Sequence record: PV191315.1
Length of the DNA: 64,000 nt
Reading direction: 5' to 3' (one strand)
Origin: Escherichia phage vB_EcoM-P3322
The stretch's first letter is position 1. Each line of letters starts with the position of its first letter. Below are positions 38,134 to 45,990 of the stretch, in pieces. The notes beneath the pieces are model-generated. The model was given only the letters and a program-made list of their open reading frames with translations. It made no database searches and had not been told where the DNA came from. A program made the translations under genes and the position numbers.

Positions 38134-40809
38134 TTAGTCGTAATATTTCAAACCTGTAATGAACTTCGATCCCCAATCCGCACTTGCGGCGGTGAACGTC
38201 AACATCCAAGTTGTAGCTGTACCAGTGAAGACCTCTCGTTGCACAGTACCATCAGTGTGGTAAATGTCCACGCCAGTATGTCCATTCTTAGGAATAGTGA
38301 AGGTAACAGCACTGGTAGTGTCTCGTGCATAAGAACAAACAAATGGTGTCCCCGCCCAAACTGGATTTGTCATATCACCCATCTCAAGCTGTGGAACCCA
38401 AGCAATAAGACCTGCCGTACCATCTCCTGCGAAAGTGTCTGATCCACTTGCATTCAAAGCTATAATCTCATAGGTTATAGATGCTTGTTTGGCAACTGTC
38501 ACTTTGTGTAGAATTACACGATACCAACCATTCCCCATATCGATTATGTTTGCATCTGCACCTGTAAATGTTCCAGCTACAAGATCATAAGTCCCTTCGT
38601 TAATCTCATCTCCTGAAGTCAATTTGAGTTTCACTTTAGTGATCCCATCTGGCTTCAAGAATACGGATGCCGCCCAGTGCTTACCTGCTGTAATATCAGA
38701 AGCTGTATTCACTGCTGATAAAATATGTTGTCCTGAAGTTGTAGAAGGTGTTAACTTGTAAGTGTTAGCCGTAGTTCCAACCGGAGAGTTGATTGTTGAT
38801 GCTGTGACTGTCAAGTTCGTCTTCAACCACGGGGAAGCTGTTGTCAAGTTATTGTTGATAAAGATATGTGTACGGTTGGCTGCTACAACACGTCTACCTT
38901 GTGGAGTTGTACCAACATATTCTAAAGGTGCTACGGGAGCAGAACTCTCTGTAGGTACAAGGATATCTCCAGAAGCCCTGGCATAACGGTTACTCCTGTT
39001 GACCTTTACATCCGCCGGAATAGTTTCTTGCGTCAAATCATAATCCATCACAATCACCACAGCATTCACTGTGAGATAAGAACTATCTTCGGCAGTTACC
39101 ACACCTTGATAAGTTGCTCTACAACCGATACGACAACCTCCATCAGCAACCGCTGTAATAACGCCTGTAACAGGGTCAACTGTTGCTACCGTAGGGTCAT
39201 TAGAGAAATACTCAACAACCATACCAGGTAAGCTTGCTGCTCCTGTTGGCGTTATTTCTGCTACCATTGTTTGTGTTGTTCCTACATCCATCGCAGATAA
39301 GCTAGGGGTGTAAACACTCAATGTTGAAGCATATCCTCCAGAGGTATCTGATAAAGTTGTTCCTTCGGCGTTTAAGGCTGTCATACCTGCATCAAAACCA
39401 CCTTCTGCATGGAAAGTCATTAAACCAGTAGATGATATTGTCATGTTTGCAGGGGCAGAAGAAGTGTATTTAATATTGAAAAGTTTACCTCCTTCTGGGC
39501 TAACAGAATGTGTCAACTGTTTAGTTCCACCTACAATACAAATTCCTAAAGAATCTGTAGTTAAGCCAGTTGCCAGAATATCACCCGTAATCACGGAGCT
39601 TGCTATTGGTGTGAATTTATTATAGTTTAGACCGCTATTGAACAGATACGAGGCTTTCCCATCTTTCCAAATACCGGAATAATACATATCTCCATTATAA
39701 ACGAAAAAGGTTCCTTGATAACCTAATTGGTTAGTAACATCCATATTCAGCGTATGAACGCTTGTGAGCTTGTTTATATCCCAAGAACCAACTCCTTCAG
39801 GTTTAACTGGTTTTCCCACTTGGAGTGGATCTCCGCTCGCAGAATCATACCCCAAACCTAAGTTTGCAGTGTAGTTCTTACCAATAGCCCACAAGGAATT
39901 ATTGATCCCAACGAAAAAAGAGTGGCGGCTTGGTGGAAACTTCCATGTTGAGAAACCTGCTGCAAAGGTATCCAGTTTAGTGTAGGTTGTTTCTGTATTA
40001 GACCTAACATATAAGTAGTTTACTGTACCCGTGCCACCGGAGGTATCTCCTACAACTATTGTCTGGGAAACTGTATTGATGTAATCTTTGACATACACTG
40101 TTTCAGTAGCGGATATCTTAGCATTGACAAAAGCTGTTGTTGTGTTATTATTACCTGCTAAACCTTTACTAGCTCCACAAACACGCAAGGTTCCCACATT
40201 GTTGACATAAGAGCATTGGTTGTAACCTGCATCAAAAGCAACTGCTGCACTTGTTATCTGACGAGGAGTAGAAACTTCGTTAGTAGTACTTGCACCTAAA
40301 CTGCCTACTGTGTTTTGACCTGATCCATAAAGAACACCACTATTCATTAACCAGAGAGTGTTGTTATATCCTCCCTTAACCTCTTTAAGATTAGCTAAAG
40401 AGATAGTCCCTGTTATTACAGATGGAAAGCTGGTCCAAGTAGTTACACATGCGTCCGTACCACCTGCTGCTATAGATCCTACCAATCCTGCTGTCAATCC
40501 TGAATATTGCCATCCTCCACTGTTAGTTTTAATAACAAAACAACGATCTGCGGTAAACACATCCGCTACTACAGTAGAAGCCAAGTGGAAATTATTGAAT
40601 CGTGCACTACGAGTTCCATCTGCAATCTCACCAAAAAGGTTTGCGCCTTGAGTAAACAATCTACCATCATTAAGCAAAATTGCTAAACTGCTGTTAGAAT
40701 TACCAGCATTATCTGGGTAATCTAAAGTGATTACTTTTTTAACAATACCCGCTGGCAGAGGAACGACACCAGTGCTGGTCATAATAGTAAATATTGGAAT
40801 TGGAAACAT
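38134..40809 (-). CDS. tail fibre / receptor-binding protein (891 aa)
   Basis: Large Gly/Thr/Ser/Asn-rich beta-type protein at the distal end of the tail module; SD GGAGGG. Confidence 0.45.
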   Translation of the reverse strand: MFPIPIFTIMTSTGVVPLPAGIVKKVITLDYPDNAGNSNSSLAILLNDGRLFTQGANLFGEIADGTRSARFNNFHLASTVVADVFTADRCFVIKTNSGGWQYSGLTAGLVGSIAAGGTDACVTTWTSFPSVITGTISLANLKEVKGGYNNTLWLMNSGVLYGSGQNTVGSLGASTTNEVSTPRQITSAAVAFDAGYNQCSYVNNVGTLRVCGASKGLAGNNNTTTAFVNAKISATETVYVKDYINTVSQTIVVGDTSGGTGTVNYLYVRSNTETTYTKLDTFAAGFSTWKFPPSRHSFFVGINNSLWAIGKNYTANLGLGYDSASGDPLQVGKPVKPEGVGSWDINKLTSVHTLNMDVTNQLGYQGTFFVYNGDMYYSGIWKDGKASYLFNSGLNYNKFTPIASSVITGDILATGLTTDSLGICIVGGTKQLTHSVSPEGGKLFNIKYTSSAPANMTISSTGLMTFHAEGGFDAGMTALNAEGTTLSDTSGGYASTLSVYTPSLSAMDVGTTQTMVAEITPTGAASLPGMVVEYFSNDPTVATVDPVTGVITAVADGGCRIGCRATYQGVVTAEDSSYLTVNAVVIVMDYDLTQETIPADVKVNRSNRYARASGDILVPTESSAPVAPLEYVGTTPQGRRVVAANRTHIFINNNLTTASPWLKTNLTVTASTINSPVGTTANTYKLTPSTTSGQHILSAVNTASDITAGKHWAASVFLKPDGITKVKLKLTSGDEINEGTYDLVAGTFTGADANIIDMGNGWYRVILHKVTVAKQASITYEIIALNASGSDTFAGDGTAGLIAWVPQLEMGDMTNPVWAGTPFVCSYARDTTSAVTFTIPKNGHTGVDIYHTDGTVQREVFTGTATTWMLTFTAASADWGSKFITGLKYYD

Positions 40810-40850: not shown

Positions 40851-42875
40851 TTATCGTGTTACAACAACCATGTCCACGATATCACCCACACCAGGATACG
40901 TTAATTGCAAAATTGTTACTGCGTTAGCAGTAGTTGCTATTTCTGTATCATTTAGTGCTCCATAAGACGCATCTAGTGTAACCGTGTGTCCCGTTGTATC
41001 TTGAATCAAATAAATCATTGCTGAAAACGCTTTAGGTTTTGTAGAGCCAGTGACACCAGGCCATGCTCCAACTGTCAGAGCGTCAGTTACTGTAACAACA
41101 TACATATTGGAAGTTCCAGGAGGAGTCCAAGATGCTCCAGAGTTGGCAGTAGTTGTTTCAAGTTCCATGAAACCTGCTGTAACTCTAGTTGGTGTTATAG
41201 CTTCCGTAGGATCTGATCCTGATATTTCGATCCAGTTTCCATCAGAACGACCATACGTCAAGCCGTCTTGAGGGGCTTCTGGTATACTAGGAAGAGTTCC
41301 TATAAGTGTCCACGTAGAAGAATCTGTTTTCTTAAACACTGCTCCAGTGGTAGTATTGAAGGCGTAATCATTGATAACACCGTCTCCTGCGACTGGATTA
41401 GTTGTTGCTACAAACCACTGTGCGCCGTCCTTACCGTTGGTCCCATCAGTACCGTTGGTTCCATTTGTTCCAGGATCACCCTTATCACCTTTGTCGCCCT
41501 TCTCACCTTTGTCACCTTTAATACTTCCCATGTCAACAAAAGATGCGGAATTGGTGTCTTGATCGTAAGTATAGATGTAAAGATTACTAGTGTCTTCAGT
41601 TAAGTAAGCATCACCATAGTTATTGTAAACAGGGAGAGCTTCACTGTTCGGAACATGACCTTTAGCTGTAATTGATGTTCCTCCAAGACTGCCAACATTC
41701 ATCCATTCCGTAGCATCTTGGACCCAAACATACAAATCATTATTAATTTTATATGCATCACCTACTTCTCCAGTCGGGGGAAGTTCAGCTTCGCTGTTCA
41801 GAACCCCGATAATCTCTAAGCCTGATCCTGTTGCACCAACTGGTCCTTGTGGACCTAATTCACCTTGTGGACCTTGCTCTCCTTGATCACCCTTGTCTCC
41901 TTTTGGACCTTTAAGCGAGGCAATGAAATCTACTTCTGTCCCTTCATTACCAGCATCCAGCCAACTTTGATATGCAGATTTCCCTTCATCTCCATCTGTT
42001 CCATCTAGACCGTCTTTACCTGCCTCACCTTGTGGACCTTGAGGACCAACAATATTACCCATGTTGACCCAAGCTGTCCCATTAGAGACATAAAGATTAC
42101 CATTGATAGAGTAAGCTTGGCTTACGTTTTCAGAGTTAGGTTGTGGTAAGTTACTTGTAGAAGGCAAATCCCCACGATAATCAAAACCGTTGGCGTTAAC
42201 ACCAGGTGCTCCCTGTGGCCCTGTAGGACCAACATCGCCTTTATCACCTTTTATAGAGGTAAGAAAATCATAAACAGACCCTGTATTACCATCTGCCAAC
42301 CATACCTCGTAAGCTGATTTACCTTCTGGCCCAAGAGAAGAAATAAGTTTCCAAACAGAACCATCCCAAGCGTAGATTACATCACCTACGATATAACCAT
42401 CCCCTGCAACGTTACCTGTAGATGGTAGTTCACTAGTGCTTGCTAATGATCCTTTAATATTAAGTTGAGCACCAGTATCCCCTTTCAAAGAAGCAAGCCA
42501 TTGTGCTTCTGTTCCAACAAAACCATTATCAAGTGCGATCTGATAAGCCGATTTACCAGCTTCAGGTATTGTTTCCGACAGATCATCAATCTGTTGCTGC
42601 ATTGCCGTAAACTTGGCATTGATAATTGCTATATCATCAGCGGTCCCAACACTTTGCCATGCAAGGGAAGAAATACCACCTGTGGTGGCTGGCGTAGAGT
42701 TTGCTGGAACTACTTTAGGAAAAGTTCCTTTCCATTGGTAATAATTCCCTTCTGCTGCTAACAGCAAAACTTCACGGGAATTACGTAATGTAAAACCTGC
42801 CTCAAAGCTGCGACGTTTTCGATAAGTAGCTTCTACCAGATCGGCTATCGCACTATTAGGTCTTGTTAAATTCAT
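40851..42875 (-). CDS. tail fibre protein with collagen-like Gly-X-Y repeats
   Basis: Four interrupted Gly-X-Y runs; a module GKSAY(Q/E)..L..G..G....(F/W)L.S(L/I)KG repeated three times, as in many phage side tail fibres. Confidence 0.55.
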   Translation of the reverse strand: MNLTRPNSAIADLVEATYRKRRSFEAGFTLRNSREVLLLAAEGNYYQWKGTFPKVVPANSTPATTGGISSLAWQSVGTADDIAIINAKFTAMQQQIDDLSETIPEAGKSAYQIALDNGFVGTEAQWLASLKGDTGAQLNIKGSLASTSELPSTGNVAGDGYIVGDVIYAWDGSVWKLISSLGPEGKSAYEVWLADGNTGSVYDFLTSIKGDKGDVGPTGPQGAPGVNANGFDYRGDLPSTSNLPQPNSENVSQAYSINGNLYVSNGTAWVNMGNIVGPQGPQGEAGKDGLDGTDGDEGKSAYQSWLDAGNEGTEVDFIASLKGPKGDKGDQGEQGPQGELGPQGPVGATGSGLEIIGVLNSEAELPPTGEVGDAYKINNDLYVWVQDATEWMNVGSLGGTSITAKGHVPNSEALPVYNNYGDAYLTEDTSNLYIYTYDQDTNSASFVDMGSIKGDKGEKGDKGDKGDPGTNGTNGTDGTNGKDGAQWFVATTNPVAGDGVINDYAFNTTTGAVFKKTDSSTWTLIGTLPSIPEAPQDGLTYGRSDGNWIEISGSDPTEAITPTRVTAGFMELETTTANSGASWTPPGTSNMYVVTVTDALTVGAWPGVTGSTKPKAFSAMIYLIQDTTGHTVTLDASYGALNDTEIATTANAVTILQLTYPGVGDIVDMVVVTR
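41427..42251 (-). repeat. collagen-like Gly-X-Y repeat-encoding segments within tail fibre gene
   Basis: Runs KGDKGDVGPTGPQGAPG, GPQGPQGEAGKDGLDGTDGDEG, GPKGDKGDQGEQGPQGELGPQGPVGATG, KGDKGEKGDKGDKGDPGTNGTNGTDGTNGKDG; opposite strand gives a Pro/Leu/Ser-rich pseudo-ORF. Confidence 0.6.
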
Positions 42876-42936: not shown

Positions 42937-45900
42937 TTAGGTTGTTGGCACATCTACTACTGGCGTTGGGCGAATAACCGCAGTATTACCTACAGAAACA
43001 TTACTGGAATCATTAGGTATGGTTTTAATTCTAACTCCAGCACTTGTAGGCGTTACAATTGGATCTGCAATGTCTATTTTAACTGGGTTAGTCCACGTAT
43101 CATTATCTTGATAAGGTGCACGAGTAATAACTGTGTCCAAATCTGCTCCACCTACGCCAGCACCAGGAATACGGATACGTGTCCCTGCTGACAGAGGGTA
43201 ATGATACAACCAAGAAGCATTTGTTGCTGTCCCGTTAGGAGTCAAGTTCTGTGTCAGGAAGGTATCTCCTGCCTGTGTAGCTCGAATACCGAAAGCTGGG
43301 ATATCTGGAATATATGCCCCACTTGTTGTTACAAGGAAGAACGTATTATCCGCCTTGACTATCATATCACCTTTGTCAAACTCTTTCCCTGTTGGGAAAT
43401 GCATTCCATCAATGTTTCGACTAGGATTAGGCTCTAAGTAATAAACTTTGCCCGTTGTCCCTACAATAGCTCCAATACCACCTGCGATATTGGTATACAT
43501 ATTAGCTTCAACATTACAGTTGACACGATGAATATCCGAGTAACGGCAACGGCTCCACTGTGGACGACCAGTAACCATCGTCTTGCCATCTGGGTAACAG
43601 TTTACGTTAACCATTTCAAGAACAGATTTTTCTCTACGGAAGAATCCATCATAAAATGTCCCTGGACCAGATTCAGGTTGACCAACACAATCGAAGATAT
43701 TACAGGTGATGTTAGACATTGAAAGCCAAGAAGCTATACCGAACAACTGCAATGCAGCGCAACGAATATTTTCAAAGCTAACTCTGTTTTCATAACCTGG
43801 CCCAGCGGAAACTCCCGCAAAAACACGCCCAGTTTTGGTGTGAATGTTACGAACAGAATAGTTAAAGCATGGGTTTGAAGGTCTACCCTGTGCCGGAACT
43901 ACCGGATTACCCTCTTCGTCCAGAACTGCGTTAGTTCCCCACTCCAAATAAATCATACGGATATTACTTGCAAGTGTGCTACCGTCTGTTTTAGGCTCTC
44001 CGTAAACACCGTCAATCGTAAAATCTTTACTTCCATACATTACAACTGCGCCAGTTGCCAAACCTGTCCCAACAGATACGGTTTGATCTGGATCGCCATG
44101 AATGTTTTCGATAGAGATATTACGACCAACTTCTACGTGGACAATCTGACGACAACGTTTTGCAAAAACGTTACGAATTGTAATATTCTTGCAATATTGA
44201 TCATCAGGGATTCCGTAACCATATGGTCCTTTACCAGCTACACCGATACCGATACCCCAGTTGGACAGAGGAATAGGAGCGTTAGTCCCATCGATATTAG
44301 ACAGGTAAATATTCTCAATCACACAACCATCGTCATAATGTTTATTGATGACGTTCAGTTCTATTGCATCACCTTGCATGTCCATGAAGGTAAGGTTACG
44401 GAAGACACCACGTGTTACTGGTTCCCCTGTTCCTTGTTGAAGGATGCCATACAACCCGTTTTTAAAAGTACAGTTATCAATTTCAAAAGTACCTGATATT
44501 GGGTTGCCTTGGAATACCAAGCTACCAACTTGACCTGGGCGAGGAGCACCGTCCCACAAACAATCGAACATGCGCACAGCACCACCCCAATACATAACAC
44601 GAGAGTTACGGAAAGTTGTGCCTTCTACTGTAGCATTCTGCACACGATAGTCGCGTTGACCACGGAACACACCACCACGCAAAGTGATATCTTGAATATC
44701 AAAAGAGCTTGTCGTGAAAGTCATATCGCAACCATAAGCATCGAGAATCTTGCTTTTCGAAGCTTTTGCTGCTAACAGTGCCGCTTGGAAAGCTGCTTCT
44801 GGTGTGGTATATGTTGTTGTGTTGTTAGCAAATTCTGATAAGTAGACAACATCGAATAAATCGTTGTATGTTCCACCACGAGGGGTTAACAGTCCTTCTG
44901 TATTGGTCAGAACCCATGCATTTGGACCTAATCCACCGCTTGTCTCCAATGTATCGGAGGCCAAAATACTTTTTGGTAAACTTCCAGCCCAACGATAACG
45001 ACCAGCACCACGCCCAATCGTCTGATTTTTAGCTGTCAGAGTTACGTTATTACCAAAGCTTGTAGGCAAATGAACAAACTGTCCACGTTCAACAGCTAGT
45101 GCAGAAAGATCTACAGACCCCCCAGAATAAGTCATTACTCCAGAAACAGACAAGGATGTTAAAGTTCCTGTGATGTTAGGAGGTAATGTGTAGGAAGACT
45201 GTGCTACTGGATCATACAGAGCTTTAATCCCTGTTAACGATTGACCTGCTGTTGCGTAAGCCACCTCATCATCTAACAAACCATATTTACGAGCAATAGT
45301 TTGCAGAGGGACTTTATCCATGCTTTCTGTTAGTTCTTCCGTTTTTGTTTCTAAACTAACAAGACGGTTCTCTAGATTAGGATCTGTATCTGCTGAAGCT
45401 ACGATTTTACCAATATAAGCAAAAAGCTTGTTTGGCAGTCCTGTTGCAGGATCGTGTCCCAAAGGTTCAGATAAGATGATCTTACTATCTTCTATACGGA
45501 AAGCTTCCCCCAGAACCTGAATAACACCATTGATCGTAACAATAGCACTATCAAAGATGTAAGGAGGACTAATTACTGTTTCATAACCAGTTGCACCAGA
45601 ATATACCCAAGGGGTGACTTCTGTTGCCAATTGTTCTGTCTTCAGTCCCCACAATACCCAGTTGTTATCTCCTACTGGAGTCCCTTGCATAGGGATAGGG
45701 TTAACCAATGTAGCGTTAGGAGCATAGTAATAACCGCTCAATACTCCATTCTGGAAATAACGAAGTTGGTTAAAAACCGTTTCATTTGTGCCTTGCGCCC
45801 AATCCAATGGGCTTTTAAAGAAAAAGTTATCAACAAGGGCTTTTCTCAGGGTTGGTATCAACCCTGATTCTGTTTCAATACTCTCTGTAGCACTTCCATT

Positions 45901-45990
45901 AATAACGTCATGGAGTTGGTTAGATGAGAAAATAACCAGGTCTACGCCCTGTTCGAGAGACGTTGCTGGATATGTTGGGAATGTTGCCAT
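42937..45990 (-). CDS. large tailspike-like protein (1017 aa)
   Basis: Very long beta-rich protein with many N-x-T/S and Gly-rich turns; possible depolymerase, enzymatic motif not confirmed. Confidence 0.45.
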   Translation of the reverse strand: MATFPTYPATSLEQGVDLVIFSSNQLHDVINGSATESIETESGLIPTLRKALVDNFFFKSPLDWAQGTNETVFNQLRYFQNGVLSGYYYAPNATLVNPIPMQGTPVGDNNWVLWGLKTEQLATEVTPWVYSGATGYETVISPPYIFDSAIVTINGVIQVLGEAFRIEDSKIILSEPLGHDPATGLPNKLFAYIGKIVASADTDPNLENRLVSLETKTEELTESMDKVPLQTIARKYGLLDDEVAYATAGQSLTGIKALYDPVAQSSYTLPPNITGTLTSLSVSGVMTYSGGSVDLSALAVERGQFVHLPTSFGNNVTLTAKNQTIGRGAGRYRWAGSLPKSILASDTLETSGGLGPNAWVLTNTEGLLTPRGGTYNDLFDVVYLSEFANNTTTYTTPEAAFQAALLAAKASKSKILDAYGCDMTFTTSSFDIQDITLRGGVFRGQRDYRVQNATVEGTTFRNSRVMYWGGAVRMFDCLWDGAPRPGQVGSLVFQGNPISGTFEIDNCTFKNGLYGILQQGTGEPVTRGVFRNLTFMDMQGDAIELNVINKHYDDGCVIENIYLSNIDGTNAPIPLSNWGIGIGVAGKGPYGYGIPDDQYCKNITIRNVFAKRCRQIVHVEVGRNISIENIHGDPDQTVSVGTGLATGAVVMYGSKDFTIDGVYGEPKTDGSTLASNIRMIYLEWGTNAVLDEEGNPVVPAQGRPSNPCFNYSVRNIHTKTGRVFAGVSAGPGYENRVSFENIRCAALQLFGIASWLSMSNITCNIFDCVGQPESGPGTFYDGFFRREKSVLEMVNVNCYPDGKTMVTGRPQWSRCRYSDIHRVNCNVEANMYTNIAGGIGAIVGTTGKVYYLEPNPSRNIDGMHFPTGKEFDKGDMIVKADNTFFLVTTSGAYIPDIPAFGIRATQAGDTFLTQNLTPNGTATNASWLYHYPLSAGTRIRIPGAGVGGADLDTVITRAPYQDNDTWTNPVKIDIADPIVTPTSAGVRIKTIPNDSSNVSVGNTAVIRPTPVVDVPTT

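Follow-up and report, generated by a model that had tools for sequence, protein, structure and literature searches.

A repeated GKSAY unit and the probable segmented shaft of a collagen-like tail fibre in Escherichia phage vB_EcoM-P3322

The open reading frame (ORF) at positions 40851-42875 on the minus strand of a 64,000-nucleotide stretch of Escherichia phage vB_EcoM-P3322 (PV191315.1; this whole stretch is the window hereafter) is a single frame of 674 residues in the ORF listing and, judged by its sequence, is a collagen-like side (lateral) tail fibre of a phAPEC8/phi92-type myophage (Phapecoctavirus). Among its Gly-X-Y runs lie three copies of a short unit, GKSAY…LKG. An initial annotation, made from the letters alone, took these copies for internal direct repeats and natural substrates for recombination that could change the length of the fibre or shuffle its domains with those of prophage fibres. 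Are the units, then, DNA that recombines, or are they parts of a protein with a role in building the shaft?

Here, we propose the latter. We put at about 70% the probability that the shaft consists of short collagen helices kept in register by small trimerising nodes, and that its length is adjusted mostly through Gly-X-Y triplets and not through recombination between the units; this is what we infer from the repeats, models and relatives described below. We write H for the GKSAY…LKG unit, B for a β module of about 50 residues, and col for a Gly-X-Y (collagen) run. The modules follow one another in the order Tail_spike_N, long helix, H1, B1, H2, col (6 triplets), B2, col (8), H3, col (10), B3, B4, col (11), B5-like segment, foldon-like motif, and tip (Table 1). 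Neither the gene nor its collagen-like nature is new; both have been annotated before. We draw a distinction between that knowledge and the modules themselves, as the annotations of phAPEC8, phi92, and Bas60 stop at “tail fibre” or “collagen domain”, and H, B, and the foldon-like motif are undescribed there.

The GKSAY units as protein and as DNA

EGKSAY occurs three times in the protein, each time with S[IL]KG 21 residues downstream (residues 105-132, 183-210, and 296-323). Pairs of units are identical at 12-17 of 28 residues (43-61%) and reach Smith-Waterman scores of 59-88 against a shuffle mean of about 18 (standard deviation about 4; z = 10.8-16.7), so the thrice-repeated unit is real at the protein level. 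A blastp comparison of the protein with itself gave no off-diagonal high-scoring segment pairs under the settings used, hence the recourse to Smith-Waterman alignment with shuffling. The initial annotation had also placed a collagen run after each unit, which holds for the second and third copies (6 and 10 triplets) but not for the first, where two triplets (GDTGAQ) lead into a β module.

As DNA, the repeats are weak. The three units share 54-63% of their nucleotides and 39-50% of their third codon positions, and the longest exact run in register is 7-8 nt. Nucleotide repeat detection, including Tandem Repeats Finder (TRF), did not detect a cassette repeat in the gene and returned only the 9- and 18-nt periodicity of Gly-X-Y, for which TRF gave an 18-nt unit in collagen run 4 (1.9 copies, 94% matches), together with a single 14-nt match within the codons for GKSAY. 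A sensitive self-comparison of the gene by blastn (word size 7) nevertheless recovered the register, aligning H2 plus col 1 with H3 plus col 3 over 128 nt at 63% and H1 with H3 over 77 nt at 65%, and by this measure the copies are homologous. Thus “internal direct repeats” describes a register that can be recovered from the DNA, and nucleotide self-similarity is not strictly absent, but it is only as much as amino-acid conservation imposes. The tens of near-identical base pairs that would make direct repeats usable for homologous recombination are not found in the H units. In our reading of these sequences, the three copies would be old paralogous modules kept by selection on the protein, and not recent DNA duplications.

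No exact direct repeat in the gene is longer than 17 nt, and the one of that length (CAAGGTCCACAAGGTGA) lies outside the GKSAY units, in collagen runs 2 and 3, where it codes for QGPQGE. It exceeds what was found in all 100 codon shuffles of the gene (maximum 14 nt). A deletion between its two copies would be in frame (165 nt), and none is seen in relatives.

The H unit, the B module, and the foldon-like motif

The H unit measures 26 residues from glycine to glycine and is predicted by AlphaFold2 (AF2) to form two short helices (helix-loop-helix) in every copy; the full-length AF2 monomer, with a mean predicted local distance difference test (pLDDT) of 53, is good for local secondary structure only. 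The consensus reads G-K-S-A-Y-E-[ILV]-[AW]-[VL]-x-x-G-[FYN]-x-G-[TS]-x-x-x-[WF]-L-x-S-L-x-G; its length is strictly conserved and certain positions (G, S, Y, and G) are invariant. With the central region of the protein as query, 3,235 proteins were found at an expectation value (E) of at most 1e-5, and among the best 120 of these 3,235, H is present in 83 of the 105 proteins that are not close orthologues, in up to 11 copies each. When a 31-position H profile was run against 1.84 billion cluster representatives, it matched 26,960 representative proteins at E <= 1e-3, 9,399 at E <= 1e-10, and 1,621 at E <= 1e-30, and the largest number of copies in one protein was 39. Could the likeness of the three units be convergent or compositional all the same, a set of chance motifs in a Gly-rich protein of low complexity? 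The units are short (26-28 residues) and their surroundings repetitive and rich in glycine, but z-scores of 11-17 against shuffles and a profile that finds so many proteins, with single-module scores well over noise, refute this reading, and the strict unit length and invariant positions leave it next to no probability.

The surroundings of H are regular as well. A Gly-X-Y run follows the last glycine in register in 84% of H units and precedes the first glycine in 62%. Consecutive units are spaced by 25+3n residues (25, 28, 31, 34, 37, and 40 among the arrays listed), and 810 of 1,226 linkers between them are pure Gly-X-Y, those of zero length included. Three proteins (P0121, P0124, and P0137) carry head-to-tail H arrays of up to 39 copies, often linker-free, and have no Pfam match; the 39-copy protein returned zero Pfam matches over its length. 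Since such arrays dispense with linkers, H should be able to build a fibre without collagen.

Positions 8, 13, and 20 co-vary across 1,337 distinct units as a triad with two states, and all three of their pairs have the top corrected mutual information. About 1,045 units are in the A-F/Y-W state and about 255 in the W-N/H-F/Y state, and tryptophan at both positions 8 and 20 is found in none of the 1,337. This covariation fits a volume-compensated core that joins helix 1, the turn, and helix 2, in agreement with the predicted helix-loop-helix. Taken together, the fixed length, the collagen context with its regular spacing, and the co-varying core point to H being a small autonomous fold. In the window gene, H1 is in the A state and H2 and H3 are in the W state, so that the three copies fall into two subtypes, both found across unrelated phages and far older than this phage lineage.

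Curated resources do not describe the unit. No Pfam or NCBIfam model covers any of the three H stretches of the window protein, and the protein matches neither Pfam PF03406 (Phage tail fibre repeat 2) nor another curated fibre repeat over GKSAY. DUF2934 (PF11154), a short helix-hairpin family with an A-Y-x-x-W…G…W pattern, was considered and membership rejected, with no match in the window protein at E <= 0.1 and only summed sub-threshold echoes on some homologues with multiple H units. A literature search on the GKSAY motif found no paper. We suggest, tentatively and at somewhat less than even odds, that this uncatalogued, structurally unsolved, and very widespread mini-domain acts as a self-trimerising “staple” of bacterial and phage collagen-like helices, with head-to-tail arrays being fibres themselves. 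It would then be a new collagen-registering family, foldon-like in use.

A second repeat family, overlooked by the initial annotation, is the B module of about 50 residues. It occurs four times, is also widespread in other phage fibres, and has the consensus G.G..i.G…LP…GDaY.v…LYvW.g..W.n.G…G, with E values of 1e-20 to 1e-24 per copy against a profile of orthologous copies. When B1 was modelled alone by AF2 with 34 homologous modules, four strands were predicted at a pLDDT of 82.8, which shows B as an independent four-stranded unit. The B profile matches phiKZ gp184 (8y6v_I, a β-rich minor capsid protein) at E = 5e-4, and structural matches of B include small domains of several tailspikes, nozzle proteins, and the JBD30 DUF2793; Foldseek returned nothing significant for the module. 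A fifth copy, B5, was considered and set aside, as the segment, although modelled with the same pattern of four strands, scores -1.1 bits against the B1-B4 profile and so lacks sequence support.

Between the shaft and the tip domain sits a foldon-like motif. In a phmmer search of the PDB, residues 531-552 match T4 fibritin foldon constructs, including (GPP)10-foldon (1nay), with E values of 0.003-0.2, and residues 541-550 form a β-hairpin in the model. No match to Pfam Fibritin_C (PF07921) was found in the window protein at E <= 0.1. Compared with the T4 fibritin foldon (1rfo, 1nay), residues 530-553 (IPEAPQDGLTYGRSDGNWIEI) match the pattern PEAPxDGxxYxRxDGxW and form the hairpin in the model. 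The foldon is the textbook C-terminal clamp of collagen-like helices; the window motif, unlike that of T4, is internal, is followed by a 120-residue tip, and is preceded by a β segment and not by collagen directly.

Length variation and the construction of the shaft

If the units do not readily recombine, how does the fibre change its length? In 13 full-length orthologues (61-99% protein identity) the number of H units is exactly three in every case and their places are conserved, the positions of H1 and H2 are identical, and the A/W/W pattern of subtypes is kept in all 13. Indels are mostly whole triplets within the Gly-X-Y runs, of which run 4 is the most variable part of the protein (Table 1); the others are an insertion in the B3 loop, small C-terminal indels, and the B5-like segment missing from orthologue P0010. 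By mean column identity, H1 is the most conserved segment (0.89) and collagen run 4 the least (0.47).

Closer relatives were also compared, these being the approximately 60 records at least 90% identical to the window gene. In them the gene is 2025 nt long with three exceptions. ASO2A (MZ726793) has lost 9 nt, one GTN triplet of collagen run 4 (window positions ~41440-41460), and is the only triplet-step variant in this set. EP57 (vB_EcoM_EP57, OR544956; L004:1501-3039), whose genome is 130.7 kb compared with about 150 kb in relatives, has an in-frame deletion of 486 nt (162 residues) from mid-H3 to the end of collagen run 4, which takes the end of H3, col 3, B3, B4, and col 4 and has a junction without homology. 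SKA64 (OM362897; L001:3819-3972) has an exact tandem duplication of the H1 coding segment with a 77-nt period, a net gain of 76 nt that is out of frame, and its coding sequence is annotated as truncated (549 residues); this duplication may be a real pseudogenising event or an assembly artefact. None of the three has an H-to-H junction.

These observations bear on the reading from which we started, that the three GKSAY-collagen cassettes are direct DNA repeats on which recombination or slippage acts, changing fibre length or exchanging domains with prophages. The cassette can certainly multiply elsewhere. In an unrelated high-GC phage contig (Logan contig SRR27313615_15480, P0016 gene; L006:7182-7872), H plus collagen forms a true DNA tandem array with a 120-nt period, 5.8 copies, and 74-79% matches, which indicates, as do the proteins with up to 39 copies, that the cassette amplifies within the family, although not recently in the window gene. 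The deposited SKA64 sequence, the triplet lost in ASO2A, and the 17-nt repeat on either side of H3 could likewise be cited in favour of that reading. Set against them are the low DNA identity of the window units, with no more than 8 identical bases in a row, their division into two ancient subtypes, a copy number fixed at three in 13 of 13 orthologues (the comparison of repeat number that the initial annotation had itself suggested), the constant gene length of nearly all close relatives, the absence of H-to-H junctions from the exceptions, and the doubtful, out-of-frame nature of the SKA64 duplication. As for exchange with prophages, searches of 5,426 complete E. coli genomes with the gene, in both megablast and blastn mode, returned no DNA match, and hence no prophage partner is visible. 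We consider recombination between H units largely refuted and, as an account of this gene, very unlikely. What survives is the narrower claim that fibre length changes: it does evolve, mainly in Gly-X-Y triplet steps.

How, then, might the shaft be built? In a homotrimer, every H would fold into a small node of six helices and every B into a small β node, and the chains would be kept in register by these nodes along with the C-terminal foldon-like motif. Trimerising domains, foldon among them, are known to nucleate short collagen helices and to stabilise them, as in (GPP)10-foldon (1nay), Scl2 with its V domain, and the prophage collagens of E. coli with PfC and PCoil. Kept in register in this way, Gly-X-Y segments of only 6-11 triplets, though free of hydroxyproline, could form stable triple helices, and the fibre would be segmented and of defined length. 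Changes in length would come mostly from the gain or loss of Gly-X-Y triplets, probably because of slippage on their periodicity of 9 and 18 nt, and in rare cases from the loss of a whole module. With the textbook collagen rise of 0.286 nm per residue, about 30 nm of the shaft would be made up by the 105 Gly-X-Y residues.

One alternative is that the H units and other interruptions are chiefly flexible hinges or kinks at which the fibre bends, or docking sites for further fibre proteins of a branched adsorption apparatus, and not registration or trimerisation nodes. Interruptions in collagens are classically associated with flexibility. Phages of the phAPEC8/phi92 type have several fibres and spikes whose proteins need to be joined to each other, a neighbouring 1017-residue colanidase-like protein has the same anchor domain in an internal position (residues 302-361), and the fibres of phi92 are too flexible for resolution (PMC13450770). 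The spread of H over tens of thousands of unrelated proteins, across many types of phage, argues against a specific partner, and the head-to-tail arrays with zero-length linkers, which show no partner-specific variation, look like a self-sufficient shaft element. The conserved positions of H, moreover, are mostly hydrophobic or glycine and co-vary like a folded core. We thus regard hinges or docking sites as unlikely, though less so than recombination between the units.

Several points weigh against short collagen helices held by trimerising nodes, our preferred reading. The structure models are of monomers only and H is absent from solved structures, a PDB profile search with 62 H units having returned noise only; trimerisation of H and B, and the six-helix node in particular, are accordingly something we infer. 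In the full-length model the H units are of low confidence (pLDDT ~40-53). The B module has a weak match, unreproduced by Foldseek, to the trimerisation domains of multiplexins (collagen XV/XVIII), which we treat as a lead only. The in-frame 165-nt deletion around H3 by way of the 17-nt repeat is possible in principle, if rare. Finally, the best fold match of the whole-protein model is the triple β-helix capsid spike of Pseudomonas phage Pa223 (gp52, PDB 9ny6), a match likewise reported for phi92 gp151 (PMC13450770), so the B modules might intertwine as a β-prism in the trimer instead of forming separate nodes. The match is a poor one, with template modelling (TM) scores of 0.12-0.24 and 14% identity for a low-confidence model; the Pa223 spike decorates the capsid and not the tail, the word “collagen” is absent from the Pa223 preprint, and the H profile finds no PDB chain.

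The fibre gene, its relatives, and its neighbours

The identification of the gene as a tail fibre stands on its position in a fibre cluster, on the fibre annotation of its counterparts in phAPEC8, phi92, and Bas60, and on its Tail_spike_N domain and collagen repeats. Over its whole length, its DNA matches the gene annotated as tail fibre in phAPEC8-like phages (Phapecoctavirus, Stephanstirmvirinae) at 98-99% identity, and that of phAPEC8 itself at 98.5%. The orthologues are phAPEC8 G377_gp087 (YP_007348547), phi92 gp151, and Bas60 (PaulScherrer) bas60_0036, the last annotated as “lateral tail fiber protein with type I collagen domain”. Gene 151 of phi92 is 63% identical in nucleotides to the window gene, and the orthologues of Justusliebigvirus and phi92 are about 58-63% identical (protein or DNA). 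The protein belongs to the lateral tail fibre group of the phAPEC8/phi92 type, with phrog_15437 covering residues 1-674 at 1339 bits. In phAPEC8 the order is baseplate wedge genes, a short fibre and its assembly protein, a colanic-acid-degrading spike, the fibre gene, and then an 891-residue RCC1/Big_2 tail protein. The window has the same neighbours, the synteny of its fibre cluster with phAPEC8 and Bas60 is kept, and the phAPEC8, phi92, and Bas60 records all have the gene between a colanidase-like spike upstream and an RCC1/Big_2 protein downstream. A cryoEM paper on phi92 (2026) lists gp151 as a putative fibre protein, unresolved (PMC13450770), and a literature search on Phapecoctavirus collagen tail fibres found no paper.

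By tblastn, the protein is a mosaic: the anchor is common to many tailspikes, the central modules to fibres of jumbo, Staphylococcus, Lactobacillus, and crAss-like phages, and the tip to rV5-like and other fibres. Some relatives carry unexpected host labels. The fibre gene of an Acinetobacter phage, ABPW7 (OP562383), is 99.0% identical to the window gene, and the Campylobacter phages A150 and C3 (MG065639, MG065656) have a phi92-type orthologue at 63.6% identity; these non-Escherichia labels may be wrong or reflect contamination.

Table 1. Modules of the fibre protein, the 17-nt repeat, and the neighbouring genes, with positions in the window
Feature	Position	Strand	Residues	Description	Triplets in orthologues
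Upstream colanidase-like β-helix protein	42937-45990	-	1017 residues in all	Tail_spike_N internal, residues 302-361	
N-terminal anchor, Tail_spike_N	42645..42842	-	12-77	Pfam PF18668, 70.5 bits against a cut-off of 25	
Single long helix, anchor to H1	42570..42641	-	79-102	AF2 helix, low pLDDT	
H1	42480..42563	-	105-132	SLKG; subtype A (A8 / F13 / W20); AF2 helices at residues 110-116 and 123-130	
B1	42324..42473	-	135-184	Profile E = 1.4e-23	
H2	42246..42329	-	183-210	SIKG; subtype W (W8 / N13 / F20); AF2 helices at residues 188-194 and 201-208	
Collagen run 1	42195..42248	-	210-227	6 Gly-X-Y triplets	6, fixed
B2	42042..42194	-	228-278	Profile E = 2e-24; four strands in the model, pLDDT 70-83	
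Collagen run 2	41976..42047	-	277-300	8 triplets, continuous into H3	5-11
H3	41907..41990	-	296-323	SLKG; subtype W; AF2 helices at residues 301-307 and 314-322	
Collagen run 3	41820..41909	-	323-352	10 triplets	8-10
B3	41676..41828	-	350-400	Profile E = 2.2e-24	
B4	41511..41681	-	399-455	Abuts B3; profile E = 1.3e-20	
Collagen run 4	41418..41516	-	454-486	11 triplets	<4 to 13
B5-like β segment	41289..41417	-	487-529	AF2 strands, residues 487-527	
Foldon-like motif	41217..41288	-	530-553	SIPEAPQDGLTYGRSDGNWIEISG; PDB sequence matches	
C-terminal tip domain	40863..41201	-	559-671	PDB 9cuy_g match	
17-nt exact repeat CAAGGTCCACAAGGTGA	42025-42041 (col 2), 41860-41876 (col 3)			165 nt apart, flanking H3	
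Downstream tail protein	38134-40809	-	891 residues in all	RCC1-like β-propeller signature (under Pfam cut-off) and Big_2 Ig-like domains	

The anchor matches the N-terminal regions of CBA120 TSP1, TSP3, and TSP4 and of G7C gp63.1 (4qnl) in the PDB, with E values of 2e-13 to 3e-5, and the helix that follows is probably a short trimeric coiled coil. The tip, presumed to be the receptor-binding end, matches a putative tail fibre of phiTE (PDB 9cuy_g) at E = 4.3e-8, and relatives that are 99% identical carry a precomputed match to Pfam PF26209 (Phage_phiTE_241_C). The protein contains the collagen repeat of Pfam PF01391 (46.2 bits against a cut-off of 27.2), and its Gly-X-Y runs have a pLDDT below 50 in the monomer model. 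The NCBIfam SclA/SclB models match the collagen parts far under their cut-offs.

How does the fibre compare with better-known collagen-like proteins? As in the streptococcal proteins Scl1/Scl2, the Gly-X-Y runs are hydroxyproline-free and rich in charge. The published structure of the Scl2.3 V domain is reportedly a helix-loop-helix, which in the trimer assembles into a bundle of six helices and helps the triple helix to fold. H is unrelated to the Scl V domain in sequence, far smaller (26 residues), repeated, and internal, and Scl is an LPXTG-anchored adhesin whereas the window protein is a virion fibre. The EPclA-D proteins of enterohaemorrhagic Escherichia coli (EHEC) prophages are trimeric fibres whose Gly-X-Y stretches are capped or interrupted by the non-collagen trimerisation domains PCoil, PfC, and Pf2; their collagen lengths differ by multiples of three residues, with a flanking domain serving as the nucleus from which the triple helix refolds (Ghosh et al. 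2012, PMC3368898). The window protein resembles them in having Gly-X-Y domains with non-collagen flanking domains and length steps of three residues. It differs in having no match to PF08400, PF06820, or PF03406, with H, B, and the foldon-like motif in place of these, and in carrying four short collagen runs of 6-11 triplets where EPclA-D have one or two long ones.

Three further observations concern the surrounding genes. The N-terminal extension of about 300 residues in the upstream 1017-residue protein could be an adaptor or branching region for other fibres. In the downstream 891-residue protein, the combination of RCC1-like and Big_2 domains is unusual for a phage fibre protein. The GC skew of the window flips sign near ~38 kb, being positive before and negative after, and the fibre genes beyond that point are on the minus strand.

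The fibre is one of several in a multivalent adsorption apparatus. Its fixed modules, and a length that is adjustable mainly through Gly-X-Y, tell engineers where the fibre may be shortened, lengthened, or given a new tip, the natural cut points being the module boundaries, the collagen runs, and the junction between foldon and tip. The most useful by-product of this analysis is the very large, apparently uncurated, and structurally unsolved family of the H unit, a very common block of phage and prophage collagen-like fibres that apparently has no Pfam, NCBIfam, or PDB entry. With a structure of H and a curated family, tens of thousands of proteins now called “hypothetical” or “collagen-like” would be better annotated, and H could yield a compact trimerisation tag for recombinant collagens.

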